A DNA stretch of 64,000 bases from an uncultured Candidatus Sumerlaeota bacterium (GTDB lineage: Bacteria; Sumerlaeota; Sumerlaeia; SLMS01; CAYUNT01). This document shows, one piece after another, positions 1,456 to 48,703 of this stretch. The notes beneath the pieces were generated by a model that saw only the letters and a list, made by a program, of their open reading frames with translations, made no database searches and was not told where the DNA came from. The stretch's first letter is position 1. Every line of letters starts with the position of its first letter. The stretch covers positions 32 to 64,031 of the forward strand of contig CAYUNT010000002.1 of NCBI GenBank assembly GCA_964446285.1, given 5' to 3'. The position numbers were made by a program, and so were the translations under genes.

Positions 1456-2793
1456 TTATTTCTTGAACTGCGGCAGCCAATCGGCCTGCGCGGCGAACAT
1501 TTCGTCGGTCATCGCCTGGATTTCGTCGAGCGAGCACACGGCGGCCGTCAGCGGATCGTAGGCGAGCGCCCAGAATACCATGCGTTTGTCACCCGTCAGC
1601 GCGGCGCGGACGGCCATTTGCTGCACGGCCACGTTCGCGGCGTTCAGCGCGGCGCATTGCGGCGGCAACTCGCCCACCTGGCACGGATGGAATCCGCTCT
1701 TGTCCACATAGCACGGAACCTCGACGCAGCATCCGCGCGGAAGGTTCGTGATGTGGCCGTCGTTGCGGATATTGCCGTTGATGCGCGCGGTTTCGCCCGT
1801 CTCAAGCGCGTTCACGATCTTCGACCCATACTCGCGCGAGACATGCAGGTTGAGCGGCGTCTTGCCCGAGGCCATATCCTTCATTTCCTGCATCCAGTTG
1901 GCGCGGTCGCCTCCGTAGAGCTGTTTGATGAATCCCGTGCCGCCGTTCCAGCTGCCGCCCGGGCAATACTTCTTGATGAGCGCGGGCCGTTTGCGGAACC
2001 ACCAGTTGTATTCCGAGTTGTGGCCGCTCGATTCCGTAACGGCGTAGCCGAGGTGCTTGAGCATTTCGCAGCGTGTCGTATCTTCGCGATACACCTCGGG
2101 GCGCGCGGCGGCCTTGTGGATGTGCGGATAGGCGTCTTTGCCGTTCCAGCGGAATTGCAGATACCACGCCTGGTGGTTGATGCCGGCGCACCAGTAGTCG
2201 ATGCTCGGGCCGGTTTCGCCAACGATCGGGTTGTCGATCGCGCCGATGCGCGTCGCCCACTGCCAGGCCGTTCCCTGAACGCTGTGGCAAAGACCGATGA
2301 TTTTGGCGCCTGTCGTCTCGAACCCCGACAGGCAGAGCATTGCCATCGGGTTGGTGTATTGCAGCACCCAGGCGTTGGGGCAGATGCGCTCGATGTCGCG
2401 GAAAATCGCGACCATGACCGGGATCGTGCGCAGGGCGCGGAATACGCCGCCTGGGCCGAGCGTGTCGCCGATGCACTGGTTCACGCCGTATTTGAGCGGG
2501 ATGTCGATGTCTTGCGAAATGACCTCGATGCCGCCGTGCAGGATCGAAACGATCACATAATCCGCGCCCTTGAGGGCCTTTTTGCGGTCCAGCGTGGCCT
2601 CAAGTTTGACCTTTTTGTGTCCGCCATCCTGGAGAATGCGGCGCGCCACGCCTTCGGCGTATTTCAGGCGCACGGGATCTACGTCCACCAGCGAGAATCG
2701 CGTTTCTTGAAGCGCGGGATACGAGAGAATATCAAACATGAGCTGGCGCGAAAACACAAGGCTTCCGGCTCCGATGATCACAACTTTCGGCAT
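1456..2793 (-). CDS. glycoside hydrolase family 4 (NAD/Mn-dependent alpha-glucosidase/alpha-galactosidase type)
   Basis: N-terminal MPKVVIIGAGSLVF Rossmann motif, length around 445 aa, and conserved GH4-like internal blocks (CHSVQGT, YTNPMAM). Confidence 0.85.
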   Translation of the reverse strand: MPKVVIIGAGSLVFSRQLMFDILSYPALQETRFSLVDVDPVRLKYAEGVARRILQDGGHKKVKLEATLDRKKALKGADYVIVSILHGGIEVISQDIDIPLKYGVNQCIGDTLGPGGVFRALRTIPVMVAIFRDIERICPNAWVLQYTNPMAMLCLSGFETTGAKIIGLCHSVQGTAWQWATRIGAIDNPIVGETGPSIDYWCAGINHQAWYLQFRWNGKDAYPHIHKAAARPEVYREDTTRCEMLKHLGYAVTESSGHNSEYNWWFRKRPALIKKYCPGGSWNGGTGFIKQLYGGDRANWMQEMKDMASGKTPLNLHVSREYGSKIVNALETGETARINGNIRNDGHITNLPRGCCVEVPCYVDKSGFHPCQVGELPPQCAALNAANVAVQQMAVRAALTGDKRMVFWALAYDPLTAAVCSLDEIQAMTDEMFAAQADWLPQFKK

Positions 2794-3013
2794 GGTAAAA
2801 TTGGCTCCGTTTCGTCGGGAATCTCAGCAAAATGCGAACCGCCGCGCGCCCGGAATCCCGCGCAGGGAATTGGCGGATTGGCGGCAGCCGGGCCGAGAGA
2901 ATGCCCGCCTCGGGGGCGCTCGTCAAGGCCGAGCCGCGCCGGGAATCTGCGCCAAAACAGGCCCTCATATCAGATTAATTGATGCGAACTGTGAAAAGGG
3001 CTTAAACGAATAA

Positions 3014-3042
3014 ACAAAAAAAAGCCCCGATTGCTCGGGGCC
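3014..3042 (-). terminator. intrinsic terminator downstream of the pilin-like gene: hairpin gccccg-attgct-cggggc followed by a T8 run on the minus strand
   Basis: The GC stem plus poly-T tract (A8 on the plus strand) lies immediately 3' of the minus-strand stop at 3120. Confidence 0.6.
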
Positions 3043-3119
3043 AAGGAACGGCAATCGGCAGCAAAGCCTGCCGGTCAAGGAGTGGGGTGATCCTAAAAGC
3101 CTATACGGAGATGGAATCG

Positions 3120-3746
3120 CTACTCGGCGTATTTCCCGTCGGAGAACTTCTGATTCCGCTCGATGTCGCCGACGCTCACCGTGCCGTTGGTCGCGTCGTA
3201 AATCACTTCCGTATAGGCAGGTTTGGAGTCTCCTGTGAAATCGCCATTGAAGATCAATTGATCGGGACCGCACGAGGTCAGACGCCACCAGCCATAGCGT
3301 TTCACGGAATACTCCTGATCGACAGGCTGGTTCGCATAGCGGGGGTCGTCGAAATTGCGGTAGTAATACTGGCGGCTCCACCAGAAGGGATTCGGACGCC
3401 CCGCGCGAAAAACGTCCTGCAGAACGCTGGCGGAGGTCAGATACGCAGTAGGCGTCGTCAGCAGCGGCGGATTGAGGCCATTGACATCCCAGAGCTGATT
3501 GTAGGGCGGCTGGCCGTAGGGAGGGTATTTGTTGTAATCAACCCGGTAGGATTCGAGTGCGAGGGCCACGTTGCGCATATCGCTGCGCACGCGCGAAACC
3601 TTCGAGCGCACTTGCGCCTCGAGGAAGTTGGGGATGGCGATCGCCGCCAGGATGGCGATGATGGCCACGACGATCAGAAGTTCGATCAGGGTAAAGGCCC
3701 TCGCGCCTGCGAATATCTTCGTGGATTTTAGCGGATTGCTATTCAT
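3120..3746 (-). CDS. prepilin-type N-terminal cleavage/methylation domain protein (DUF1559-like pseudopilin)
   Basis: ARAFTLIELLIVVAIIAILAAIAIPNF N-terminal motif. Likely start is the ATG at 3746 (MNSNPLKS...); the track ORF extends to 3818. Confidence 0.8.
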   Translation of the reverse strand: MNSNPLKSTKIFAGARAFTLIELLIVVAIIAILAAIAIPNFLEAQVRSKVSRVRSDMRNVALALESYRVDYNKYPPYGQPPYNQLWDVNGLNPPLLTTPTAYLTSASVLQDVFRAGRPNPFWWSRQYYYRNFDDPRYANQPVDQEYSVKRYGWWRLTSCGPDQLIFNGDFTGDSKPAYTEVIYDATNGTVSVGDIERNQKFSDGKYAE

Positions 3747-4030
3747 TGGGCGCTGCCTCCTTTGCGATTTGGCTTGGTGTTTCCCGCCGGAGCGTGGCGA
3801 GATAGTTTGTTGTTTCAATCAACTTATACAAGCACCCCCCGCGCGCCGTCAAGCGCCAAAACACAAGCGCGAAAAATAATTTCACCCCGCAAGGCGCCCG
3901 AGGTTTTCCCGTTGCATTCCGCCCATTCTGGCAATAAGTGATGTTTTGCCGCGCCGGGATTCTCCGCCAGACTCCGCCCTCGGCGATGGCTGGCGGGCAA
4001 ACTTTAGCGCTGTTGCCGATGGGCAGAAAT

Positions 4031-4115
4031 GCCCCGTCACTTCGTTCCGGGTTCTGCAAGAACGAACAAGTCGCAAAGCACACTTCATGCGGAACCCCGA
4101 ACGAAGTGGCGGGGC
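4031..4115. repeat. long-stem imperfect hairpin element, copy 1 (about 27-bp stem: gccccgtcacttcgttccgggttctgca ... tgcggaaccccgaacgaagtggcggggc)
   Basis: Imperfect inverted repeat read in the sequence. A second copy with conserved arms but a different loop lies at 13189-13272. Confidence 0.6.
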
Positions 4116-4215
4116 TGCAAAAGGTAAAAAGGCGCCTCGGCTTAATAATGGCATCAGTGTGCGCCCGCGCCTGGCAGCCCTTCACCTTCCTCATCGAAGG
4201 ACGCTGGCACGCTTC

Positions 4216-5400
4216 ATGAAAATGCGCAAAATCAACACGGCCATCGCTTCTCGCATCAACCGCTCCTTCGTGCTTGCGCAAATTTACCGCCACCCGCTCA
4301 TTTCACGCGCGGAACTGGCCAATCGCACCGGTCTTGATCGTTCCGCCGTCACGCACATCCTCAACCACCTCATCGAGTGCGGGCTGGTCGAGGAGGTGAA
4401 GAAGGGCAAAGCCGGCGCGCGCGGCGGACGCTGCCCCATCCAGTTGCAGGTTCGCTACGATGCCGCTTGCCTCATCGCCATCGAGATCGGCCTTGGCAAA
4501 CTCACATGCGTCATCGCAAACCTCGAAGGGCGCGAACTGGCGCGCGACGAAATGGACATCGCCCGCGGCGAACCGCTGCTCGGCATCCTCGTCCGCTTTC
4601 TCGATCCCTTGCGCCGCCGCCGCCGGAAGCTCTTTCAGGACGCCGCGCTCATCGGCATCACCTGCCCGGGCGTGGTGGATAGCGCCGCCGGACGCATGGT
4701 GTTTAATATCTTTCACAACTGGCGCGGCGTGGATGTGGCCAGCCATCTCGAATCCCGATATGGCAAGCCGGTTTTTATGGAAAACGACGCCAACGCCGCC
4801 GCCATGGGCGAACTCTACAAACTCGGCCCCGCCCAGCAGGTCCACAGCCTGATTTATTTGTTCCTGCGCGCCTCGGCGCCCGGCGGACCCAGCCTGCTCG
4901 GGGTGGGCGGCGCCATTATCCTAAATGGCCGCCTTTGGCCCGGCGCGCATTTTTGCGCGGGTGAGGTCTCGGAAACCGTCAACGCCGCCTTTTCGCACAT
5001 CATGCAGCAACTGCGCCAGCGCCTGGAAAAATCGCCGGGCGGGATGGGTGCTCCGCAAACCCTCGCGGAACTCTTGCGGCTCGGCGAACAAGGCCATGCC
5101 GATTGCCAATGGGCGTTGAATGAGATTGCCGCACGGATCGGACAATTGCTGGGCGATTTTGCCTCGTTCCTGGATACACAAGGGGTTTTGGTGCATGTGC
5201 ATCCCCCCGAGGGCACGCAATCGCTTGTTGAAAAAATCCGCGAGGCATTCGTGCGCAATTACCGCCTGCCCGGCAACGGATCGGTCGAGTTTTTGCCGCC
5301 ACAACTAGGCGCAAAGGCCGTTCTGGAAGGGATCATCCGCCTTGCTTTGGAACGGGTTTTCATCCACGACGCCACGCAAAATTCCATCCTGTTTCCCTGA
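4216..5400 (+). CDS. ROK family transcriptional regulator (NagC/XylR type)
   Basis: N-terminal HTH region (RAELANRTGLDRSAVTHILNHLIECGLVEE) followed by a ROK sugar-kinase-like fold. The ATG at 4216 lies inside the longer track ORF 3946-5400. Confidence 0.8.
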   Translation: MKMRKINTAIASRINRSFVLAQIYRHPLISRAELANRTGLDRSAVTHILNHLIECGLVEEVKKGKAGARGGRCPIQLQVRYDAACLIAIEIGLGKLTCVIANLEGRELARDEMDIARGEPLLGILVRFLDPLRRRRRKLFQDAALIGITCPGVVDSAAGRMVFNIFHNWRGVDVASHLESRYGKPVFMENDANAAAMGELYKLGPAQQVHSLIYLFLRASAPGGPSLLGVGGAIILNGRLWPGAHFCAGEVSETVNAAFSHIMQQLRQRLEKSPGGMGAPQTLAELLRLGEQGHADCQWALNEIAARIGQLLGDFASFLDTQGVLVHVHPPEGTQSLVEKIREAFVRNYRLPGNGSVEFLPPQLGAKAVLEGIIRLALERVFIHDATQNSILFP

Positions 5401-5553
5401 ACAATTCGAGTTTCCTTGAACAATCCGAGGCGGGTTTCCCGCCCTCCTGGCAACGCTGTGTGCCACCTTCTCTGTCGAGGGTCCCATAGGTCCCATTCGT
5501 CCTATAGGTCCCATTTTCGCTATTGGGGCAGCAGGCTTTCAGAAAAACAGGTG

Positions 5554-8550
5554 TTATTTTTCCGCCAGTTTCTTCAATTCTTGCAATAGGTTCAGGGCTT
5601 CAAGCGGCGTCAGGCGGTCGATTTGCAGGCCTCTGAGGCGTTCGAGGGCCGGATGCGGCGGCGCGTCGAATAGCGAGAGTTGCACGGCGGACTGGCGCGC
5701 GGCCTCGAACTCGTCGAGAAACCCGAGCCGTCCGCCCCGGCGCCGCGGTTTGACCGGCGCGGACGAAGCCGCGGACTCTCCCGGCACTCCCTCCGCGTTC
5801 TCTGCGTTCCCCGCGTTTTGTGCGTTCTTCGCGTTCTTCGCGTTCTCTGCGTTTCCTCCCTTGCTCGCCCCCGCCCCGGAATCCACAGCAAGCGCCTGGC
5901 CGTTTTCAAGCGACTTGAGAATGGAGCGCGCCCGCCGGATCGCCCGCGCCGGCACGCCGGCCAGTTTCGCCGCGTAAATCCCATAGCTGCGGTCCGCCGC
6001 GCCATTGACGATCTTATACAAAAACACAATCCGCTCGGGGTCCTCGACGACCGCCACATTGTAATTGCGCAGCCGCGGCAGCCGCCCTTCGAGGTCGGTC
6101 AGTTCATGATAATGCGTCGCGAAAAGCGTTCGCGGACGCCGTCCGGGCGTGTTGTGCAGGTGTTCGAGCACGGCCCAGGCGATCGAAATGCCATCGTAGG
6201 TCGAAGTGCCGCGCCCGATTTCATCGAGAATCACAAGGGATTTGTCCGTGGCGTTGTTGAGGATGTTCGCCGTTTCGAGCATCTCGACGAGGAACGTTGA
6301 TTGCCCGCGCGCCAAGTGATCCATCGCCCCCACGCGCGTGAAAATGCGGTCGAGCAGCGCAATATCCGCCTCGCGCGCTGGAACAAACGACCCCACATGG
6401 GCCATCAGGGCGATCAACGCCACCTGGCGGATATAAGTGGATTTTCCGGCCATGTTCGGACCCGTGATGAGGCCGATCTGGCGCGTGTCGGAATCGAGCC
6501 GCGTATCGTTGGGCACAAACGGCGCATCGACCTGCACGGCTTCGAGCACGGGGTGGCGCCCGTCGCGGATTTCGATGCGCCCGTCATCGTTGATGCGCGG
6601 ACGCACGTATCCGCCCGCCAGCGCCGCTTCGGCCAGCCCAAGCAACGCATCGAGCCGCGCAAGCAGCCGTCCTTGCGCCAAAATCGCCTCGACCTGCGAC
6701 GCCGTCTCCAGGCGCAGTTCCTCGAAAAGCCGCGCCTCCAGGCCGTTGATCCGCTCCTCGGCGTGGAGGATGATTTCTTCCTTTTCCTTGAGTTCGGGCG
6801 TGATGAACCGCTCGCCGTTCGCGATGGTCTGGCGGCGCTGATAGTCGGCGGGCAAGTCGCCGATCTGGCGCAGTTGGGCGTTGGTCAGTTCAATATAATA
6901 GCCGAAAACCTTGTTAAATCCGACCTTCAGGTTGGGCAGATTGAGGCGCTGGGCCTCGCGCGCGCGGAACGCGGCGATCCAGCCTTTCGTGTCATGCGCC
7001 ACCGTCTTGATTTCATCGAGTTCGGCGTTCCAGCCCGGACGGATCACGCCGCCATCGCGCGCCGTGAGGGGCGGATCGTCCGTGAGGGCGCGGCGCAGGC
7101 GGTCTCGCAGCGGATCGAGCGGGTCCAGCCCTTCGCGCGTCGCGGCAAGCAATTCCGAGCGCGCCGGTTCGAGCGCGGCGGCCAGGCGCGGCAGACGGTC
7201 GAGCGCGGCGCGGATGGCCGACAAATCGCGCGGACCGGCCCGCCCGCAGGCCACGCGGCTCGCTACGCGCTCAAGGTCCGGCAGCCCCGCCAGCGATTCG
7301 GCCGCGCGCGAACGCAACGCCAGCGAATGGAAGAATTCCTCGACGGCATCGAGGCGGCGTTCAATTTCCGCGGCGCGCCCAAGCGGCGACAAAACCCACT
7401 GGCGCAGCAACCGCCCGCCCATCGCCGTGCGCGTGCGGTCGATCACGGCCAGGAGCGTTCCGTCGCGCCCGCCCGAATGCAGATTGCGCACAAGTTCGAG
7501 GCTGCGCTGTGTCACGGCGTCGAGCACCAGGCAGTCGTCCGTGCGCCAGACTCGTAACTCGCGCAGGTGGGCAATCGCGCCCTTTTGCGTTTCCTGGAGA
7601 TAATCGAGCGCCGCGCCCGCCGCCCCAAGCGCCACGCTGAGATGCTCCGCGCCAAATCCTTCGAGGCTTTGGACGCCAAAATGGCGCTGGAGGAGGCGGC
7701 GCGAACGCGCGGGATCAAAGCGGTCGGCGGGGCGGCGCGTCAGGCGCGCGCGCGATTCGCCGATGCCTCCCACCGCGCCCGCTCCTCCCCCGCCGCTTCC
7801 GATTCCGCCTGTGGCCGCCGCCACAAACGCCTCGGGGAATCCTTCTGGCAAAAGGATTTCCGCCGGTTCGAGGCGCACGAGTTCCGAAAACACCTCTTCG
7901 CGCGCGCGCGGGCCTTCGAGTTCCGTGACGGCGAACGCGCCCGTCGAAAGGTCGGCGATGGCGATGCCGAACACGCCCTTTTCCGAAAAAAGTTCCAGGG
8001 AAGCGGCATCTGTGCGCGCGCTCGCTGTTTCCGGCGGCGAGACGCAGCCGCTCCCCCTCAGGCCGTTTTCCTCCCGTCCAAACAGGTCTTCCAAACCCGC
8101 AGGGGCGCCTGCCCCGCAAGTTTCATTTTCCGCCCCTCCGCGCGCGGGCTGCCAAGTGATCGCCATCAGGTAATTGTTCGCGCGATCATCCAGAATCCCC
8201 GGTTCGAGCGCCGTCCCCGGCGTGATGACCCGCACGATGTCGCGCCGAACCAGGCCTTTCGCCTGTTTCGGGTCTTCCATTTGCTCGGCGATGGCCACGC
8301 TGCGGCCCGATTTGACGAGTTTCGCCAGATAACTTTCGATCGCGTGATACGGAACGCCCGCCATCGCCACTTCGCCGTCCACGCCCGCCGTTTTGCGCGT
8401 AACGACGATGTTCAGCAGCCGCCCGGCCTCGTCCGCGTCCTCGAAGTAGGTTTCGTAGAAATCCCCGCATCGAAACAGCAATATGCAATCCGGGTGCTCT
8501 TGTTTCAAGCGCCGGAACTGGCGCATCATCGGAGTTGCCAAATCCTGCAT
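5554..8550 (-). CDS. mutS: DNA mismatch repair protein MutS (unusually long, with low-complexity inserts)
   Basis: Mismatch-binding N-terminus (MSMQDLATPMMRQFRRLKQEHPDCILLFRCGDFYETYFEDA), Walker A GPNMAGKST and the C-terminal HTH region. Low-complexity segments include NAKNAKNAQNAGNAENAE. Confidence 0.9.
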   Translation of the reverse strand: MQDLATPMMRQFRRLKQEHPDCILLFRCGDFYETYFEDADEAGRLLNIVVTRKTAGVDGEVAMAGVPYHAIESYLAKLVKSGRSVAIAEQMEDPKQAKGLVRRDIVRVITPGTALEPGILDDRANNYLMAITWQPARGGAENETCGAGAPAGLEDLFGREENGLRGSGCVSPPETASARTDAASLELFSEKGVFGIAIADLSTGAFAVTELEGPRAREEVFSELVRLEPAEILLPEGFPEAFVAAATGGIGSGGGGAGAVGGIGESRARLTRRPADRFDPARSRRLLQRHFGVQSLEGFGAEHLSVALGAAGAALDYLQETQKGAIAHLRELRVWRTDDCLVLDAVTQRSLELVRNLHSGGRDGTLLAVIDRTRTAMGGRLLRQWVLSPLGRAAEIERRLDAVEEFFHSLALRSRAAESLAGLPDLERVASRVACGRAGPRDLSAIRAALDRLPRLAAALEPARSELLAATREGLDPLDPLRDRLRRALTDDPPLTARDGGVIRPGWNAELDEIKTVAHDTKGWIAAFRAREAQRLNLPNLKVGFNKVFGYYIELTNAQLRQIGDLPADYQRRQTIANGERFITPELKEKEEIILHAEERINGLEARLFEELRLETASQVEAILAQGRLLARLDALLGLAEAALAGGYVRPRINDDGRIEIRDGRHPVLEAVQVDAPFVPNDTRLDSDTRQIGLITGPNMAGKSTYIRQVALIALMAHVGSFVPAREADIALLDRIFTRVGAMDHLARGQSTFLVEMLETANILNNATDKSLVILDEIGRGTSTYDGISIAWAVLEHLHNTPGRRPRTLFATHYHELTDLEGRLPRLRNYNVAVVEDPERIVFLYKIVNGAADRSYGIYAAKLAGVPARAIRRARSILKSLENGQALAVDSGAGASKGGNAENAKNAKNAQNAGNAENAEGVPGESAASSAPVKPRRRGGRLGFLDEFEAARQSAVQLSLFDAPPHPALERLRGLQIDRLTPLEALNLLQELKKLAEK

Positions 8551-11832: not shown

Positions 11833-12972
11833 TTATCCGTCTTTGTGATCCAACGAATCCCGCAATTCCGAGCCCTCTGGCGGATTTGCGGCCACGGGCG
11901 GTACCGACCCTTCGGCGTTCGTGACGTTGATTGCACTCAACTTATCATAAATCAGCTCACGCAGTTTCTCTATGTTTGTTCCAGCCTGCGCGGAAATAAC
12001 AAGCAGAGGAATCCCCCGGCGCTGAAAGGCCCGTTTCACGGATTTCAACGTCTCCTGGCTTAGCAAATCCGCCTTGTTCAAGCAAACCACTGTGGGCTTT
12101 TGCCCCAGAGCCTCGGAATACTGCGCCAGCTCCTCACGCACGAGCGCGTAGGAATACACAAGGTCCTCGATGAGGCGTTTTCGCGCCGGAACATCCTCGG
12201 GTTCGCCCACGCCGTCGGGCGGGCTGACCAGGTGGACAATCAGGCGGGTGCGTTCGATGTGGCGTAAAAACCGGTCGCCCAGCCCCGCCCCTGTGTGCGC
12301 CCCCTCGATCAGCCCCGGAATATCCGCAATCGTCACAGGATGCGCCAGCGACTCATCGACCATCACACCCAGATTGGGATGAATTGTTGTAAATGGATAC
12401 GCGGCGATTTTGGGATGGGCGCTCGTGACAGCCGCAAGCAGCGTGGATTTTCCCGCGTTCGGAAGGCCCACAACCCCAATATCCGCAATGGCCTTCAGTT
12501 CGAGGATCAGATTGCGTTCCTCGCCGGGTTCGCCGAATTCAAACTCGCGGGGCGTGCGGTTGGTCGAGGTGGCGAACGACTCGTTTCCGCGCCCGCCGCG
12601 CCCGCCGCGCGCCACAAGAACGCGCTGACCCGCCCGCGTCACGTCGCCCAGTTCCGCGCCCGAGTCCGCGTCAATCACGCAAGTCCCCAGCGGAACGCGC
12701 AGAACGATGTCCTCGCCCGAATGGCCCGCCTTGTTAAAATTAGCCCCTTTATCGCCTGGGCGCGCCTGGATGAGCGAACGCATCTTGAAATCGAGCAGCG
12801 TCACCATCGAGGCATCGCCCTCGAAGTAGATGCTTCCCCCCGTGCCCCCGTGCCCCCCGGCCGGGCCTCCTTCGGGAACATATTTTTCGCGCCGGAATGC
12901 CACTGCCCCATCGCCGCCATTGCCCGCCTTAACGTGCACACGCACAAAATCAACAAAATGAGAATGTTTCAT
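11833..12972 (-). CDS. obg: GTPase Obg/CgtA
   Basis: Obg fold N-terminus (FVDFVRVHVKAGNGGDGAVAFRREKYVPEGGPAGGHGGTGGSIYF) and G-domain GLPNAGKST. Start is taken at MKHSHF; the track ORF extends to 13119. Confidence 0.9.
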   Translation of the reverse strand: MKHSHFVDFVRVHVKAGNGGDGAVAFRREKYVPEGGPAGGHGGTGGSIYFEGDASMVTLLDFKMRSLIQARPGDKGANFNKAGHSGEDIVLRVPLGTCVIDADSGAELGDVTRAGQRVLVARGGRGGRGNESFATSTNRTPREFEFGEPGEERNLILELKAIADIGVVGLPNAGKSTLLAAVTSAHPKIAAYPFTTIHPNLGVMVDESLAHPVTIADIPGLIEGAHTGAGLGDRFLRHIERTRLIVHLVSPPDGVGEPEDVPARKRLIEDLVYSYALVREELAQYSEALGQKPTVVCLNKADLLSQETLKSVKRAFQRRGIPLLVISAQAGTNIEKLRELIYDKLSAINVTNAEGSVPPVAANPPEGSELRDSLDHKDG

Positions 12973-13188
12973 AATGGCGCCTGTTGTCTTTCGAGCTCCG
13001 GCTCTCTGGTTCCCTGGATTGCGTTTCCGGGCGGCAATATCTTTTCCGTTTCCGCCACCTGGAGCGGCGCGCCCGCTGGATGCGCGGGCTTGATCTAGCA
13101 CTTTCTCCGCCCACGCCAAACGCCGTCAATGGCGAAGCGCGTGTTACGAAATGACCGGGCGGCATCTTGACACAGTTTCCAACAAACC

Positions 13189-13272
13189 GGGAAAAAGCCC
13201 CGTCACCTCGTTCCGGGTTCTGCATACGCGGATGCGTCCTGGATCACTCTTTATGCAGAACCCCGAACGCAG
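13189..13272. repeat. long-stem imperfect hairpin element, copy 2
   Basis: gccccgtcacctcgttccgggttctgca ... tgcagaaccccgaacgcagtaaggggg. The arms match copy 1 (4031-4115) and the loop differs. Confidence 0.6.
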
Positions 13273-13577
13273 TAAGGGGGTGAAAGCGGTTTGGGTCGGC
13301 AATAGTGTCAAGATACGCCCCAAATGACCAAACCGTATCCCCGCGCAAATACCGTTAAGTTTGAATAAAGCCGCGGGCAAACGGACAAAACCTCTTGATA
13401 GATTGTCACGATTCGGCATAAAGGCAAAAGCGAGATGTGGGGCGGCTGTGTCTTGCGATTCTATATGATCGAGGAACCATTCTGCCGAAAAGGGATGTGC
13501 GTGGGGTAACTCGAAGAGGGTAGAATCATGCCAGACCGGTTCGCCCGCCGATTTTTATCATAAGGAGTCTCGGAATC

Positions 13578-14741
13578 ATGAAGAAAACTTTGATCCTTGT
13601 CCTGTCACTGGCGGCCATGCTGTCGCTTACGACGCTGGCCAGCGCCGCGGATTTGCAATGGTCGGTGCTGGTTCCCGAAGCCACTATTCTAGCGGCCACG
13701 GGTGAAACCGGCTTCTCCGCCGGTTCTCTTTCCGTGAACAGCGCTGGCGTAATTGCGATGTAGGAGCGCACTTCCACCCACAAAGTTCTGCTGATTGACG
13801 CCAGCAACAACGTGACCCTGATCGCGACCGCGGTCCAGATTGCCGCCGCCATCGGCACCGCCAACGGAACCACGGATGACCCAATTGCCCTGCAAATCAA
13901 CATTCAGACTGTTCGATTCAATGCCGATGGCAACATTATCGTCTATACGCGCAATTCCGCCGGCACAGATGCCCAGGGCGATCAGGGAACGCTGCTGGCT
14001 ATCGAGCCGACCGCTCCCTACACGATCCATGTCCTCGCCACAGCCAAAAACGGCGGCAACACGCCGGTTCCGGGCGGCATGGGCATGGTTATGAACGGCA
14101 ACACGGCCTACATTCTGAACGACAACTACTATTTCCCGAACCTGGCGGAAGGCATTTATGCAATTTCCACTTCGCCCGTTGTTGATGACGGTTCGAAGAC
14201 CACGACGCTGATCGTCGATAGCGCCGCGCTGCAGGCCGCCAGCGGCGATTCCTCATCGGCTCTGGCCCTGAGCGACGGCGTTATGCTCGACGCCAACACG
14301 ATGATCCTCATTAACAGCGGCGTCACCGCCTCCAATGACAATTTGGTAAAAGTGGACCTCTCTGGAACGCCGACTGCTTCGCTGTATGTGGCGGCGACCG
14401 ACATTGAGGCCGACCTCGGCACGACGGACGTGGGCTTTACGGCCATCACCGCCGATCCTTCCGGCAAGGTGTATCTGCACAATTACTATGGCAACAGCAC
14501 GTTCGATGACGGCGTGGTCATCCTCAGCAACATCGTTCCACCCAACGCCGACGCGGCAATCGAACTCGAAACCAAAATCGCGACCGACCTCGGCGGAACC
14601 GACTTCAATAGCGGCGGATGGGACTCGCTGGCCTATAGCTCGGTTCGCGGCGGCGTTTTGATGCTGTCTGGCGGCACAGGCTGCAAGGGCGTTGTCCGCT
14701 GCGCGCCTGTTTCCGCCGTCAGCGACTGGACGCTTTACTAA
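13578..14741 (+). pseudogene. secreted repetitive protein gene carrying one in-frame TAG (signal-peptide exon 13578-13763 plus body 13812-14741 in the same frame); possible pseudogene, readthrough or base-call error
   Basis: An AAGGAG Shine-Dalgarno precedes the ATG at 13578. A signal peptide (MKKTLILVLSLAAMLSLTTLASA) is followed by a TAG at 13761-13763, and the frame continues open for 16 codons into the 309-aa ORF, which has no signal peptide of its own. A rho-independent terminator follows the gene. Confidence 0.5.
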
Positions 14742-14857
14742 GATCAAGAACCTTGCGCGGACTGCGCCCCCGGCTCCCTGCGCCTGACCCGAATACGGCA
14801 GGCAGCGCCCGCCGCCAGAGGCAAATCCCGCGCGACACCGCAACGTGAAAACAACCT

Positions 14858-14896
14858 GGCCCGGGACGGCATCGCAACCGTCCCGGGCCTTTTTAT
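14858..14896 (+). terminator. intrinsic terminator (ggcccgggacgg-catcgcaa-ccgtcccgggcc plus TTTTTATT)
   Basis: A 12-bp GC stem followed by a T-run, just downstream of the secreted-protein gene. Confidence 0.65.
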
Positions 14897-14939
14897 TGTT
14901 CTCCCTATGTCTCGCGCTGTTCCTGGGATTGTCTTGGAA

Positions 14940-16202
14940 TCAGCGAATTTTTGATTCGTTCGGGCCGGTCCAAAGCAGCAGGGGGCGCACGTGTTTCCCT
15001 CCGCGCCCCGCGACGCTCTTTTCCGTCGGCTGCGGACGCCACCCGGCCTCGACCATGCTTTCGGTCTCTTCCCAGGGCTTGATGCCGCTCAGCGCGTCCA
15101 TCGCCGTCACATTGCACGCGCCGACGGCGTTGGCCATTTGCAGCGACCGCTCGAAGGCGCATCCGCGCAGGAACGACGCGATGAATCCCGCAATCGCCGA
15201 GTCGCCCGAGCCGGTCGCCGATGCCACCGGGTCCACCAGAAATGTCCCATGCCACAGCTCGCGCGCGCTCCAGTCATCGAGTCGATCCGCGCCGAGGTTG
15301 GGGATTTTCGCCATGACCTCGCGCGATGCGGTGCGGCCGTAAATTCCGCGCCACCCGCATTTGATGACGGCCACTTTCGCGCCCAAATCGAGCAGCCGCC
15401 CGCCGAGCCGTGTCAAATCTTCGGCCGTAAAGGAATCCAGCAGCGCCCGCCCCTCGCGCCGCGCCCGGTCGTGGCGCGCCATGAACTCCTCGCGCTCGAG
15501 CATGAACAGCATTTCCTCCGCGCTGGGCAAAAATAAATCCAGATACGGAATCGTCCGCTCCAGCACCTTGCGCCAATCCACGCGCCCTGAAGGGGCTGCC
15601 GGGTCGGGCAAGGCCATGTCGAGGCTGGTCGAAACGTGCGGGTGGCGCTCCTTGATGCGGCGGAAAATTTCGGTCAGTTCCGCGCCGTCGTTTTCGTAAA
15701 GGCGCTTCATCAGGGGCGGATAGCCGAGGTGAAAATGGCGCGAACGGCCCACGACCTCGTAATTCACGTCGTCGGCGCCGTAAGTGTTATTCGTGCCGGG
15801 GCAATGGAGGAACATGCGGTCGATGCCGGGAGGCGCGAGGACGATGGTGTAAGAAGTCTGTTCGCCCGCGACGCGAACCATGCTTTTGTCCAGGCCGCGC
15901 TGCGCCAGAAGCTCCAGAAGGCCTTTGGCGAAGAAGTCATCGCCCACCTTGCCCATCAACTCGACTTTCATCCCGAGCGTGCGCAGGTTGATGCCTGTGT
16001 TCGAGACCGGCCCGCCCGAAGACATGACGACCTCTCCCATTTGAGTGAGTTTTCCGGGGCGGAAGATGTCCTCAAAGGCCACCTCGCCGCGTTTGAAAGG
16101 GAAATGGGGAATGACGTCGAGGCAGATGTGTCCGGCGACAACGACGTCAACAGGGTTCTTTGGCGCTTTAGGCGATTTGGGCGGTTTCGAAGACGGGGTC
16201 AT
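14940..16202 (-). CDS. PfkB-family carbohydrate kinase
   Basis: Ribokinase-like N-terminal motif (VVVAGHICLDVIP) and C-terminal motif (GAGDSAIAGFIASFLRG). Start is taken at MTPSSKPP inside the track ORF. Confidence 0.8.
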   Translation of the reverse strand: MTPSSKPPKSPKAPKNPVDVVVAGHICLDVIPHFPFKRGEVAFEDIFRPGKLTQMGEVVMSSGGPVSNTGINLRTLGMKVELMGKVGDDFFAKGLLELLAQRGLDKSMVRVAGEQTSYTIVLAPPGIDRMFLHCPGTNNTYGADDVNYEVVGRSRHFHLGYPPLMKRLYENDGAELTEIFRRIKERHPHVSTSLDMALPDPAAPSGRVDWRKVLERTIPYLDLFLPSAEEMLFMLEREEFMARHDRARREGRALLDSFTAEDLTRLGGRLLDLGAKVAVIKCGWRGIYGRTASREVMAKIPNLGADRLDDWSARELWHGTFLVDPVASATGSGDSAIAGFIASFLRGCAFERSLQMANAVGACNVTAMDALSGIKPWEETESMVEAGWRPQPTEKSVAGRGGKHVRPLLLWTGPNESKIR

Positions 16203-16429: not shown

Positions 16430-18064
16430 CTAATCGCGGCCGCGCGCGCGGCGGGCCGCCTGGAGCAATGGACCGAGGGCGACTTGTTTGTCCACACGCG
16501 TTTCGCCACGGCGCACATCGATGAACAGGACGATATGCCTGCCTGCCAGAGCTGCTTGTCCTTCGCGCACAGGAACAGGAACAGAAGCAGAAGCAGAAGA
16601 AGCAGACCCGAAGATCTGCCCCACTTTTTCTCGCTCTTCAGGTAGAGCGTTCCACAAAATTAGAGGCAATTGCGCAAAATCCGCTTCGGATTCTATTTGG
16701 GCGCGAACAGTCACAACTCCGCCCAAGCCGGCCCGATTGCTCCTGCTTTCCTGGCTCGCATCGCCTTCGTGGGCGGGCGCGGAGGATTCGGAGGAATTGG
16801 AAAAATTGGAGGACTCGTGGCGCGCGTCCAGAGCCAAAACCCGCGCCAAACGCATGGGGTTGGATTCGGGATAAACATCTTCCTCAGCGACGCGGGTGCG
16901 GGGCGTGAAGTCGAAAAACCGCCACGGCAGCGGCTCGCCCTCACTGGCGCACCACATCTGATTGGCGTCGTAATAGACGATTCCCGGCGGATATTTCTCG
17001 CCTTTGGCTGGCCAGTCCGCAGGTTTCTGCACGTCCCCATACCAGACTACGCTCTCGTGGCATCGCAGGTGGTCTTCGAGAAGCATCATCTGGGCGGGAT
17101 GTTGTGCCGCTCCATAGCGCAAATTGAGCCAGGCCGCCACCTCATCGAGCGTCGCCGGGGTTGCCTCGCCCGGCGTCGCATCCAGGAACCGCCGCAGCAA
17201 ATCGGCGTTTTCGGGAAAGTGGCAATCGTGGTCTTCCTGGTGCATGAGGAAGCAGAATGCGTCGTTGAGCGCGGGCGGGGAAAGCGAAGGTCCTTCCTGG
17301 ATGAACCAGTCTGCGTTTTGCGGCGGGAAATTCCCGCGATAGCCTCGGAAAAAATCGCGCCAGTAATCGGGCTGCTCGAACATGATGCGCGACGCGCGCT
17401 GGTCGTCGGGATCGGTAGAAAAAATCACCGCGCCGCTCGGGCCGCTGTCGGGCGAATGGAAGCTCAGGAGCGCGTCGCGAGCCGTCCACTGGACCATCCA
17501 CAGGCGCGCCGGATGTCCCGCCGGGATGCGGAAATTCCCGCGGTCGGGTTTGTAGATGTCCCAAGGGCACCCGCGATGGAACATGCTTGTGTCGCAGGTG
17601 CGGTGATCGAACCCGACGCCCCAGAGGCACTCAAAACCCAGTTGATACGCGGCTTCGGTGAACTTCGATCCCACGCTTCCGATGAACTGGTCGATGGCAA
17701 GTGTCGCCGTGTAAAAATCGAAAAACGCTTCGGTGCGCCGGCGCGTCTCGCGCACAAGCGCCGTCACCTCCTCCTGCGATTTGGTAACGTTGTAATTCTC
17801 CGCCGAATGGTGGATGAAACTCGTCGGCATCACGCCGTAGTCGTCGCCGAATTCCAAACGCCAGCGCCGGATTGAGTCGTGCGCCTTGGCGGCCACTTTT
17901 TCGTCGATCAGCCACGTGATTGGGAGGCCTCGCTGGTGATACATCCGTTCGAGCTGGCGCAGTTTCGGCCAGGCGTCGCCTTCAAGCTCCAAGTTCTCCG
18001 GCGTTCCGCCAAACAGATAGCAAAGCGGGTCCCATCCATAGTGATAGTTGCTCGAAAGGACCAT
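16430..18064 (-). CDS. large conserved hypothetical protein (possibly carbohydrate-active); start uncertain, could extend to 18415 with a 200-aa Arg-rich disordered N-terminus coupled to nusB
   Basis: Long ORF with a globular-looking body (YHYGWDPLCYLFGG... HHSAENY...) and a low-complexity C-terminal SASASVPVPV tract. I cannot assign a family. Confidence 0.5.
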   Translation of the reverse strand: MVLSSNYHYGWDPLCYLFGGTPENLELEGDAWPKLRQLERMYHQRGLPITWLIDEKVAAKAHDSIRRWRLEFGDDYGVMPTSFIHHSAENYNVTKSQEEVTALVRETRRRTEAFFDFYTATLAIDQFIGSVGSKFTEAAYQLGFECLWGVGFDHRTCDTSMFHRGCPWDIYKPDRGNFRIPAGHPARLWMVQWTARDALLSFHSPDSGPSGAVIFSTDPDDQRASRIMFEQPDYWRDFFRGYRGNFPPQNADWFIQEGPSLSPPALNDAFCFLMHQEDHDCHFPENADLLRRFLDATPGEATPATLDEVAAWLNLRYGAAQHPAQMMLLEDHLRCHESVVWYGDVQKPADWPAKGEKYPPGIVYYDANQMWCASEGEPLPWRFFDFTPRTRVAEEDVYPESNPMRLARVLALDARHESSNFSNSSESSAPAHEGDASQESRSNRAGLGGVVTVRAQIESEADFAQLPLILWNALPEEREKVGQIFGSASSASASVPVPVREGQAALAGRHIVLFIDVRRGETRVDKQVALGPLLQAARRARGRD

Positions 18065-18411
18065 GCAAAGGAAAAACTCGCGCGGACGGAAAACCACGGC
18101 GGGAACAGTGAATTCGCGCCGCCCAATGCGCGCCCGCAACCGCCCGCGTCCGGGCCGGATGGCGCGCAACCCCACGCCCCACAGTGCGGGGGCATCCAGG
18201 CCTCCGCCAGATTCCACCCCCGCTGCTGCAACTGCTCCTTCCCCCTCTGCTTCTTCCGCGCGGCGCGGACGCGAATCCTCTTGCGGCGCAACGAAATCCG
18301 GCCATTCGATCCACTCGAAGGCAGGGCGGCGCGCCCGGCGGGCGGACCCGGCGCGAAAACGAAACTCGAATCGCATTCCGGCGATTCCCACCGCCTTGGA
18401 CGCCGTCTGGA

Positions 18412-18891
18412 TCATTTTTCTTCCTTTGCGTCTTTGCGCCTTTGCGGTGTCTCGCTCTCTTCGCCGCCGTTTCCGCCTTCTTCCTTGCGGAATTCGGCGA
18501 AAAGCGCGTCGAGAACGCCATTTACAAAGCGCCAGGCTTCCTCGTCGCCAAATTCGCGCGCCACTTCGATATATTCGTCGATGACCACGCGCGGCGGGGT
18601 GTCCTCGAAGTAAAACAACTCGGCGCAGGCGATGCGGAGCACGGCGCGATCGGTGGCGCAAAGCCGCTCAGGACGCCAGTTTTGCAGCGCGGCCTCGATG
18701 CGCGCGTCGATTTCTCGGATGTGTTCGAGCGCCGTGCGAACCAGCTGGAGCGAGCGGTCGGGCAGGGATTTTTTGCGTTCCGGCTCAAGCTGCGAATAGG
18801 CGCGCGCCGCTTCCTCGACGCTTTGGCGCGTATAGCCGATGGAATAGAGAAGTTGTATGGCAACGATGCGGGCGTAATGGCGTTTGGGCAC
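18412..18891 (-). CDS. nusB: transcription antitermination factor NusB
   Basis: NusB-like length and motifs (ARIVAIQLLYSI... DRAVLRIACAELFYFEDTPPRVVIDEYIEVAREFG). Confidence 0.85.
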   Translation of the reverse strand: MPKRHYARIVAIQLLYSIGYTRQSVEEAARAYSQLEPERKKSLPDRSLQLVRTALEHIREIDARIEAALQNWRPERLCATDRAVLRIACAELFYFEDTPPRVVIDEYIEVAREFGDEEAWRFVNGVLDALFAEFRKEEGGNGGEESETPQRRKDAKEEK

Positions 18892-23252: not shown

Positions 23253-23720
23253 ATGGACATCAGCAAGCATTTCCAAATCATGCTCGATTACGAAATGCGT
23301 GCAAACCGGGCGATGCTCGATGCGATGGAAGCCGCCGTCTCTCCTCCCGAGCGCGCCGTGGCGTTTTTTGCCCACATCCTGGCGGCGCGCGAACTATGGA
23401 TCAAACGTCTGCGCCACGAATCCACAGATGGTTTCGATCCGTTTCCGGCCTGGACCCTCGCCGAGCAACGCGCGCGTATGGAAAAGATCGACGCGACCTG
23501 GAAGGAATTGACCGCTCAATTCGACTGGGCGCGCATCGAAGAGCCTGTGGAATACACCGACACGCGCGGCGGACGCTGGCGCACGCGGCTCTACGATGCT
23601 TTGTCGAATCTTGTCACGCATTCGGCATATCATCGCGGCCAGATCGCGATTCTTCTGCGGCATTTTGGCGCCGATCCTCCTGTCGTGGATTATTTGTATT
23701 TCCAGCGCGAACGGCTCTGA
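23253..23720 (+). CDS. DinB/YfiT-like (DinB_2) family protein
   Basis: HSAYHRGQIAILLRHFG C-terminal motif and four-helix-bundle-like length of 155 aa. Confidence 0.75.
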   Translation: MDISKHFQIMLDYEMRANRAMLDAMEAAVSPPERAVAFFAHILAARELWIKRLRHESTDGFDPFPAWTLAEQRARMEKIDATWKELTAQFDWARIEEPVEYTDTRGGRWRTRLYDALSNLVTHSAYHRGQIAILLRHFGADPPVVDYLYFQRERL

Positions 23721-23811
23721 GCGCTCCCGGTGGCCAATTGCGGGGGCAGTGAGGATTCCGGCGCGAGAGACGCCAAAAATCTGTGTGATTGAAAAGAAAA
23801 AGAAGGGCCTG

Positions 23812-24276
23812 ATGAAGATGAGGCGAATGGACCGGGTTATGGAGGAAAAGGACGCCATCGAACTCCTGAGAAAGGGCGAATGGGGTGTATTGTCCACCGC
23901 GGACTCCAAGGGCCAGCCCTATGGCGTCCCGATGAATTATGCGCTGGAAAACGGCTATATCTATCTGCACTGCGCGGCCGCGGGAGGACATCGTTTGGAG
24001 GCCATTTCGAAAAAGGCCAAAGTCTGTTTTACGGTGGTCGGAAACACTGAAGTGCTGCCCGAGAAATTTTCCACCCGCTACGAAAGCGTCATCGTATTCG
24101 GAAAAGCGGCTCTGGTGGAAACGGATGAAGAGAAAATGGCGGCGCTCATGGCGTTTCTCCGCAAATACAGCGCGGATTTCATGGATGAGGGCGTTGCCTA
24201 CATCCACAGAGACATGTCAAAGACGGCCATAATCCGCGTGACGCTCGACCAAGTAACCGGCAAGAGAAGGCCCTAG
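23812..24276 (+). CDS. pyridoxamine 5'-phosphate oxidase-like FMN-binding protein
   Basis: Split-barrel PNPOx-like pattern (GVLSTADSKGQPYGVPMNYALENGYIYLHCAAAG). Ends with a TAG stop, so TAG functions as a normal stop in this genome. Confidence 0.7.
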   Translation: MKMRRMDRVMEEKDAIELLRKGEWGVLSTADSKGQPYGVPMNYALENGYIYLHCAAAGGHRLEAISKKAKVCFTVVGNTEVLPEKFSTRYESVIVFGKAALVETDEEKMAALMAFLRKYSADFMDEGVAYIHRDMSKTAIIRVTLDQVTGKRRP

Positions 24277-33199: not shown

Positions 33200-34035
33200 T
33201 GAATTTCGCCGATAAAATCCTCAAACTCGACCGCCGCTGGGTTTTCCTTGTCGTTGCCATCGTCACGGCCATTCCCATCATCCAGCCGCTGAACCTGCCG
33301 GTCTATGTGACGCCGGAAGTCCGTGGAGTCTTCGATGAAATCGAGAAGATTCCCGAAGGCTCGGCGATTCTAATCGCATTCGACTACGAACCCGGCTCGA
33401 CGCCCGAGTGCGATCCGATGTCGGTCGCCGTGCTGCGCCACTGCTTCCGCCGCAATCTGCGCGTGATCGGAGTCACGATTCTGGCGGTGGCCGTCGGCCC
33501 GGCCGAGCGCGTGCTCACGCAGGTGGCCAACGAAATGGGCAAGGAACGCGGCAAGGATTACACATTCCTCGGCTTCAAATCTGACCGCGCCCCAACAGTA
33601 GTCGGGATGTCGATCTCGATCCAGCGGACGTTCCAGACCGACCGTTACGGCAACGAAACGGCATCGCTGCCCGTTCTGCAGGGCGTCGGCAAACTCGCGG
33701 ATTTCCCCTACATGGTGGAAATCGCCGACGATTCAATTTTGGAATACTGGATTATGTATGCGCACGACACGGTCGGGCTGAAAATCGGCTCGTGCTGCAC
33801 GGCAGTCATCGCGTCGGGGATTTATCCGTTCCTCAACTCGGGGCAACTCACGGGCATTGTGGGCGGGCTGAAAGGCGCGTCGGAATATGAGAAATTGGTG
33901 GGCTTCCGCGGCATGGCGTCGCGCGGAATGGATTCCCAGGCCGTGATTCACATTTTCATCATCGTCCTTATGGTGGTTGGCAATATCGCTTTTCTCGTGA
34001 GCCGCAAAACCTCCCAGCGGAGGCAAACTGCATGA
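33196..34035 (+). CDS. hypothetical membrane protein
   Basis: ATGATG start overlapping the upstream stop (ATGA coupling). N- and C-terminal TM segments. Confidence 0.55.
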   Translation: MMNFADKILKLDRRWVFLVVAIVTAIPIIQPLNLPVYVTPEVRGVFDEIEKIPEGSAILIAFDYEPGSTPECDPMSVAVLRHCFRRNLRVIGVTILAVAVGPAERVLTQVANEMGKERGKDYTFLGFKSDRAPTVVGMSISIQRTFQTDRYGNETASLPVLQGVGKLADFPYMVEIADDSILEYWIMYAHDTVGLKIGSCCTAVIASGIYPFLNSGQLTGIVGGLKGASEYEKLVGFRGMASRGMDSQAVIHIFIIVLMVVGNIAFLVSRKTSQRRQTA

Positions 34036-34670
34036 ATTTCCTTGATCCTTCGCTCATCGGAATCTGGGTGGCCGCGCTTCTGACGCTGGCCATTTACAGC
34101 TTCTTGTATAAGGACAACCCCTTCTACAAAGTGGCCGAGCACGTTTATATCGGCGTATCCACCGGGTATTTGGTTGTGGTGACACTGCGCGACGCCTTGT
34201 ATCGCGACTTGTGGGAGCCGCTGTTTGTCAATCAGCACAAGGAATATCTCGTCATCATCCCCGCGCTGCTCGGGCTGATTTTGTTCACGCGCTTCACAAA
34301 AACCCTCGGCTGGATGTCGCGCATTTCCATCGCGTTTATTGTCGGCGCCGCCTCGGGAATGTCGATTCCCTACAATACGCAGACATTCCTGCTGCGCCAC
34401 ACCGAAGCCACAATCATGCCGTTTGCGGGCATTTCGGATTGGGCCGCATGGGTGAACAACCTGCTGATTCTGATCGGCGTGGTTTCCGTGCTCGTGTATT
34501 TCTTTTTCTCGATCAAACACGAAGGCCCGGTGCGTCCTGTGGCGCGCACGGGGATGATTTTTCTGATGCTATTTTTCGGCGCGGCCTTTGGATACACAGT
34601 CATGGGCCGCGTTTCGCTGCTGATCGGCCAGATGCGATTCCTGCTCGTGGACTGGCTCCACATCGGCTAG
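34032..34670 (+). CDS. hypothetical polytopic membrane protein
   Basis: ATGA overlap with the upstream gene and roughly six hydrophobic helices. Ends with a TAG stop. Confidence 0.55.
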   Translation: MNFLDPSLIGIWVAALLTLAIYSFLYKDNPFYKVAEHVYIGVSTGYLVVVTLRDALYRDLWEPLFVNQHKEYLVIIPALLGLILFTRFTKTLGWMSRISIAFIVGAASGMSIPYNTQTFLLRHTEATIMPFAGISDWAAWVNNLLILIGVVSVLVYFFFSIKHEGPVRPVARTGMIFLMLFFGAAFGYTVMGRVSLLIGQMRFLLVDWLHIG

Positions 34671-48567: not shown

Positions 48568-48703
48568 GCAACAACTCCACAAAAAGAATGCCGTCGGGTG
48601 CCGGCGGCGCAGAAAGAAGTGAAAACCACTCGCGCCAAGTGGATCAAGGTCAATGGAGCGCCACTGGCCGCAGACCCAACGGCGCGACGCGCAACCGCCC
48701 TTT

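Follow-up and report, generated by a model that had tools for sequence, protein, structure and literature searches.

When a bacterial reading frame that opens with a signal peptide is cut by a single in-frame TAG and then runs on in the same frame, what has become of the gene? The question is raised by a locus in the window (the whole stretch of 64,000 nucleotides that was analysed, from an uncultured Candidatus Sumerlaeota bacterium), where an ORF of 61 codons ends in an amber codon and a 309-aa ORF follows it in frame. The original prediction had listed four possible answers: a recent nonsense mutation, a base-call error, context-dependent readthrough, or a stand-alone 61-aa secreted peptide followed by a leaderless partner.

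Layout of the locus and homology across the stop

The locus has the following features (window coordinates).

13562 to 13567, plus strand: Shine-Dalgarno sequence AAGGAG, 10 nt 5' of the ATG at 13578, read directly from the sequence
13578 to 13646, plus strand: start codon and 23-residue Sec-type signal peptide MKKTLILVLSLAAMLSLTTLASA, with predicted cleavage between ASA and AD (crude hydropathy test)
13578 to 13763, plus strand: N-terminal gene fragment of 61 codons plus the premature TAG, corresponding to family profile positions 1-54
13761 to 13763, plus strand: premature amber codon (codon 62), aligned with Gly in the closest relatives and with Val or Ala in most family members
13764 to 13811, plus strand: run of sixteen sense codons in frame, ERTSTHKVLLIDASNN, homologous to a segment (NLEGTNRKILKIDLSQPPSSR) inside intact relatives
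13812 to 14741, plus strand: 309-aa ORF called by the gene finder, with a GTG start and a TAA stop (14739-14741), corresponding to profile positions 78-382 and repeat units 2-6
14858 to 14897, both strands: bidirectional intrinsic terminator (GGCCCGGGACGG...CCGTCCCGGGCC plus a T-run), common to this gene and the convergent pfkB-like gene
14940 to 16202, minus strand: pfkB-like gene, convergent (from the gene layout)

The start signals are concentrated at the upstream end. The anti-Shine-Dalgarno duplex at the ATG at 13578 has an energy of -8.8 kcal/mol, and the N-terminus (MKKTLILVLSLAAMLSLTTLASA followed by AD) combines a basic n-region with two Lys, a hydrophobic core of 14 residues (maximum KD12 2.64) and an A-x-A site; here and below, signal peptides were judged by a crude hydropathy test. 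At the GTG at 13812 there is no Shine-Dalgarno sequence (duplex energy +0.6 kcal/mol), and the same scan found no good one at the other in-frame starts within about 90 codons. The 309-aa ORF, which is rich in Ala (12%), Thr (11%), Gly (11%) and Asp (8%), has no signal peptide and no positively charged n-region of its own, and the segment with which it begins is internal in homologues. Downstream of the TAG the frame stays open for 325 codons with no second stop or frameshift. The terminator hairpin at 14858-14889 has 12-13 bp, 11 of them GC pairs, and is followed by TTTTTATT. Since this terminator is shared with the convergent pfkB-like gene, and since the upstream neighbour, obg, lies divergently on the opposite strand, the gene is monocistronic. 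What the original prediction had read from the sequence is confirmed throughout: the AAGGAG and the ATG at 13578, the signal peptide, the TAG at 13761-13763, the 16 codons after it, the 309-aa ORF devoid of a Shine-Dalgarno sequence or signal peptide of its own, and the strong intrinsic terminator behind it.

The surroundings have some features of their own. The intergenic region between obg and the gene (12973-13577) is unusually long at about 605 nt, and no sigma-70-like promoter match was found in it; a search of 12900-15100 gave no Rfam hit beyond one chance snoRNA-like match. Beside the pfkB-like gene lies an ORF on the minus strand (16430-18661; 661-743 aa, depending on the start chosen) which has no Pfam match at E <= 1e-5.

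Two ORFs in the same frame and separated by one stop may look like a broken gene, and a chance control showed that such bridged pairs are common in a window of roughly 60% GC. Because they are so abundant in this GC-rich sequence, the geometry of the ORFs is by itself no evidence, and homology was used instead. Searched against 5.8 billion proteins, the fused sequence hit its own 309-aa ORF and three homologues that are 386-400 aa long, namely P0002 (389 aa; 42% identity at 100% query coverage), P0003 (386 aa; 43% identity at 93% coverage) and P0004 (29% identity at 59% coverage). When P0002 and P0003 were aligned with the window by tblastn, each gave a single segment, 13578-14738, that crosses the stop (E = 2e-76 and 9e-69). 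The homologues align straight through the position of the TAG, and the closest of them have Gly there, within ...VFVVGNLEGTNRKILKID..., so that the comparison with orthologues proposed along with the original prediction finds a sense codon at this position in the intact homologues. P0002 and P0003, as well as the loci L010, L011, L019 and L020, are single uninterrupted ORFs, and signal peptides are present in P0002, P0003, L010 and L011. The closest genomic relatives are L010, a locus in a Candidatus Sumerlaeaceae metagenome-assembled genome (MAG), and L011, a locus in a Sumerlaeota MAG; the nearest members of this uncharacterised family are thus in Candidatus Sumerlaeota, and, judged from this one protein, an organism related to them is the probable source of the window.

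A profile search of 1.84 billion representative proteins extended the family to 63 clusters at 50% identity, most of them 354-408 aa long and matching the profile from end to end. In this search the window gene appears as two pieces only, which cover positions 1-54 and 78-382 of the profile. The N-terminal peptide, scored as P0011 (a near-identical variant of 57 aa), matches the profile with E = 1.5e-8 in the library of 1.84 billion proteins, and the 309-aa ORF matches positions 78-382 with E = 3e-139. By the hydropathy test, 40 of the 43 members of the family alignment have a signal-peptide-like N-terminus. The column of the TAG holds mostly Val or Ala, then Asp, and belongs to a blade-1 motif, G-x-[IV]-[YF]-V-[AV]-D, that is a typical NHL-like strand. 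The near-invariant residues of the family (G57, G118, G166, G174, S247, D254 and G305) are all kept in the window gene. As the homology spans the stop, the split gene is real and not a chance pair of ORFs, and the comparison supports the original prediction of a single exported protein, about 387 aa long, that an amber codon interrupts. The stretch 13764-13811 would then be former coding sequence, as its homology to the inside of intact relatives indicates, and no intergenic spacer. No relative above about 44-46% identity came up in the genome and metagenome scans or in the protein search. A paralogue of the gene was not found in the window.

Predicted fold and neighbourhoods of the family

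An AlphaFold2 model of the fused sequence, made with the family alignment, has a mean pLDDT of 91 and a pTM of 0.89. It contains six repeat units that start near residues 26, 79, 150, 210, 266 and 323 and have about four strands each; five of the six consist of a strand, a helix and three strands. Residue 62, where the TAG lies, belongs to unit 1, and the GTG at 13812 (residue 79) coincides with the start of unit 2. The N-terminal fragment comprises the signal peptide, an initial strand and helix, and a portion of blade 1. Searched against the PDB with Foldseek, the model matches six-bladed beta-propellers: Pizza6, the Thin NHL domain, PON1, SMP30 and strictosidine synthase, with E about 3e-7, probability 1.0, a query-normalised TM of 0.45-0.5 and a target-normalised TM of 0.5-0.7. 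At the sequence level the family profile finds weak matches over blade 1 in the PDB (E = 2e-6 to 1e-3), and these are the NHL repeats of TRIM71, Thin, PknD and Pizza. Pfam gave 0 families at E <= 1 for the protein, and NCBIfam gave none. The protein is thus confidently predicted to be a six-bladed beta-propeller of the NHL/Pizza kind, and it belongs to a small uncharacterised family. This family forms a branch, unnamed until now, within the superfamily of six-bladed beta-propellers, and the present work defines it as a small unnamed group of secreted six-bladed propellers.

It is worth describing the extreme C-terminus separately. It corresponds to the last 10 codons of the window gene (14709-14738) and is conserved in the family, with the motif V-x-[DE]-W-x-[LM]-Y in most members and P-[AV]-E-L-S-V-F-x-x-x in a subgroup. 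With a pLDDT of about 65, this tail is not part of the propeller core that was modelled with confidence, and it could be a docking or sorting peptide.

Gene neighbourhoods differ between parts of the family. At nine Acidobacteria-type loci (L016, L017, L022, L024, L027-L029, L032 and L033) the propeller gene lies directly 3' of a gene for a TonB-dependent-receptor-like protein, which has about 1,000-1,065 aa and contains the domains CarboxypepD_reg, Plug and OMP_b-brl_4; at L017, for example, the receptor-like gene occupies 2515-5712 and the propeller homologue follows at 5752-6954. A convergent gene for a metallo-beta-lactamase/DUF5689 protein is found nearby, as are genes for a glucoamylase-like and a GH3 protein, and the whole layout resembles a polysaccharide-utilisation locus. 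That the Acidobacteria homologues adjoin receptor-like genes and lie near glycoside hydrolases suggests a role of the family in substrate capture at the cell envelope; such a receptor and glycoside-hydrolase context is absent around the window copy and the Sumerlaeota copies. Another distant homologue, at about 29% identity (L031, Ga0072500_155489), has a single in-frame TGA at 656-658, at another position of the protein (RPS*GTLVAINSG, the asterisk marking the stop). Known from one contig of 1.2 kb, this may be an error or a second independent pseudogene.

The model bears directly on whether the two ORFs might be expressed separately, either with the 309-aa ORF or a similar C-terminal fragment made by reinitiation and working in the cytoplasm, or with the 61-aa peptide and the fragment as the halves of a two-part system. 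Terminating ribosomes can sometimes reinitiate nearby, the two ORFs are called separately in every assembly, and the GTG at 13812 sits where the second propeller unit begins, all of which would suit such an arrangement. Against it, Shine-Dalgarno sequences are lacking at this GTG and at all the other in-frame starts over about 90 codons, and the product would have five of six blades and lack the N-terminal strand. A conserved two-gene pair was identified in none of the 63 clusters, where the shorter hits look like fragments at contig ends. A two-part system would moreover have its parts in different compartments, as only the 61-aa piece has a signal peptide. Separate expression is accordingly very unlikely, and the stand-alone peptide with a leaderless partner, one of the four answers listed at the outset, finds no support: relatives are not organised as two genes, and the downstream piece has no start signals.

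The TAG in other assemblies and in the rest of the window

A premature stop seen in one metagenomic assembly invites the suspicion that it is a base-call or assembly error, or the consensus of a minority variant, and that the real gene is intact. Beyond the general expectation that single-base errors occur, what speaks for this is that one related contig, L003, is riddled with indels. The identical TAG is present, however, in eight contigs from seven other assemblies (L001, L002 and L004-L009), with an identical 55-nt context in all eight. The pair of 61-aa and 309-aa ORFs is found in the JGI assemblies 3300023207, 3300021561, 3300020812, 3300021843 and 3300029799, and further in the NCBI metagenome GCA_030154545.1 and in SRA run SRR8165484. 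In the 2 kb surrounding the gene, the identity of the eight contigs to the window is 99.7-100%, and the collection of 5.8 billion proteins holds no intact full-length allele. They carry two haplotypes of the 3' end of the neighbouring pfkB-like gene, so the TAG is common to at least two strain variants. The contig L003, with 39 gap openings in 1152 aligned bases, says nothing either way. The TAG is real and no sequencing error, and it is fixed in every sampled member of the lineage; an artefact, one of the options of the original prediction, is hardly credible after this.

Two apparent further lesions turned out to be spurious. What looked like a 75-bp in-frame deletion in L006 is a scaffold gap of 10 N. 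The protein P0011, which comes from L003 and serves as a cluster representative in the protein collection, was considered as an independent frameshift allele and rejected as long-read error, given the 39 gap openings and an obg gene that is shattered in the same contig. L003 (JGI 3300045909, Ga0496406_022533) is from the same organism, has fragmented gene calls and is probably an uncorrected long-read assembly.

Variation among the contigs is slight. Within the gene there are three variants (F265C, N30Y and I31F in the numbering of the 309-aa ORF), two of which lie close to a contig end; the count of 3 non-synonymous against 0 synonymous fits relaxed constraint and is far too small to weigh. 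A denser cluster lies outside the gene, in the 3' end of the pfkB-like gene on the minus strand (14982-15066), where 6-7 mostly non-synonymous SNPs separate the haplotypes of contigs that are otherwise 99.8-100% identical; at window position 14988 both L002 and L005 are broken. The pattern suggests strain heterogeneity, or else a recombination tract in the part that encodes the C-terminal tail of the kinase.

If the stop is real, it could still be one that is not always obeyed. Reassignment of TAG throughout the genome was considered and rejected on the use of the codon elsewhere in the window. In a crude set of non-overlapping ORFs there are 19 TGA, 13 TAA and 10 TAG terminators, so that 10 of 42 ORFs end in TAG, among them 23596-24276 and 34032-34670; the original prediction had already taken the stops of these two (24274-24276 and 34668-34670) as genuine and recoding as unlikely, and the wider count agrees. 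Three of the TAG-ended genes have the codon 2-7 residues past the end of a Pfam domain match, which spans profile positions 2-140 of 140 for Pyridox_ox_2, 2-110 of 111 for HATPase_c and 4-182 of 184 for BPD_transp_1. No other homology-supported in-frame TAG was seen in the 64 kb. As a separate observation, the window contains tandem paralogous genes for D-Ala-D-Ala carboxypeptidase (Peptidase_S13; 45357-46859 and 46966-48834, minus strand), both ended by TAG.

There is then the possibility that this gene alone is still functional through amber readthrough, by near-cognate decoding, a natural amber-suppressor tRNA or pyrrolysine, and that selection maintains the full-length propeller. An intact downstream frame of 325 codons, the conserved family residues that are kept and the confident model of the fused protein are all compatible with this, as is the TAG being the only allele in any assembly and lying on two local haplotypes. 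Its relatives, on the other hand, have sense codons for Gly, Val or Ala at the position, and because roughly one ORF in four in the window ends in TAG, in some cases at the end of a domain, an efficient suppressor would be costly. No tRNA gene was found in the 64-kb window and no Rfam element at the locus, and there is no stable structure 3' of the stop: the predicted RNA fold of 13730-13830 is no better than that of shuffled controls (z = -0.6). The base after the premature TAG is G, which is not known to make a UAG leaky in bacteria. Pyrrolysine is, as far as is known, essentially confined to methylamine methyltransferases in organisms with pyl genes. The features expected of programmed readthrough are thus missing, the stop not being conserved in relatives, no Rfam match being present and the fold being unexceptional, and the context-dependent readthrough raised in the original prediction finds no support in them. 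We consider it improbable that the gene is kept functional by readthrough. For a lineage that decodes the amber with a natural suppressor tRNA or by a gene-specific readthrough, and so keeps its secreted propeller at work, the chances seem slimmer; if true, this would explain both the sole TAG allele across samples and the pristine downstream frame.

A probable nonsense mutation and its place among known systems

What is left of the original list is the recent nonsense mutation, and the gene is quite likely an ordinary young nonsense-mutation pseudogene that has been mis-annotated as two ORFs. A point mutation would have turned codon 62 of a monocistronic gene for a secreted propeller into TAG. 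Translation from the ATG at 13578 would stop after 61 residues and leave, after removal of the signal peptide, a peptide of 38 residues, and the remaining 325 codons would be essentially untranslated. Should ribosomes on rare occasions reinitiate at the GTG at 13812, the resulting protein would remain in the cytoplasm and have only five of the six blades. We infer that the propeller gene has lost its function. As it stands alone between a divergent and a convergent neighbour, no polar effect on other genes would follow.

On an evolutionary scale the lesion is probably young, because neither a further stop nor a frameshift is present, the conserved positions of the family are unchanged and a well-formed propeller is still predicted from the fused sequence. 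It has to be said that an intact downstream frame, kept residues and an excellent fold prediction are also what is expected of a gene that still functions. Likewise, the fixation of the TAG across samples and on two haplotypes means either that the lineage tolerates the loss or selection favours it, or that full-length product continues to be made in some amount. For annotation, the consequence of the pseudogene reading is that the 61-aa and 309-aa ORFs of public assemblies should be joined into a single gene, marked as disrupted, and not kept as two hypothetical proteins. Loss of the propeller in this lineage may be a niche adaptation. The case has no bearing on open questions about the genetic code.

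Several known systems can be set beside the locus. The predicted fold is that of the established six-bladed propellers (NHL, the PknD-derived Pizza, SMP30/gluconolactonase/PON1, and strictosidine synthase), from which the family differs by having no Pfam or NCBIfam match, by the query-normalised TM of only 0.45-0.5, by an additional helix that follows the first strand of five units out of six, and by the conserved tail V-x-[DE]-W-x-[LM]-Y, which has no counterpart there. Catalytic or metal-binding residues were not recognised in it. With stop-codon reassignment, which is known from some phages and from a few lineages of bacteria, the locus shares an in-frame TAG in a conserved coding region; reassigned genomes, however, avoid TAG as a terminator and have many in-frame TAGs, whereas here 10 of 42 ORFs end in it and one homology-supported in-frame TAG is seen. 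Pyrrolysine systems (pylTSBCD with MtmB, MtbB and MttB) likewise have an in-frame UAG behind which the reading frame continues, but there the UAG is conserved in orthologues and the genome carries pylT and pylS, whereas here the relatives have Gly, Val or Ala, the gene encodes a secreted propeller and no methyltransferase, no tRNA gene is present in the window, and TAG often serves as a terminator. As defining features of each were looked for at the locus and in the window and not found, the window gene very probably lies outside the pyrrolysine, programmed-readthrough and code-reassignment classes.

Single-nonsense pseudogenes have been catalogued in Salmonella Typhi, Yersinia pestis, Mycobacterium leprae and many MAGs. 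From these the window gene differs in nothing mechanistic; what is particular to it is that the family is uncharacterised, the lineage uncultured and the allele fixed across metagenomic samples. It has in common with them an ORF that is intact but for a single in-frame stop, homologues elsewhere that are uninterrupted, a remnant that is mis-annotated as a shorter gene with a weak GTG start, and an affected gene that is accessory, secreted and non-essential.
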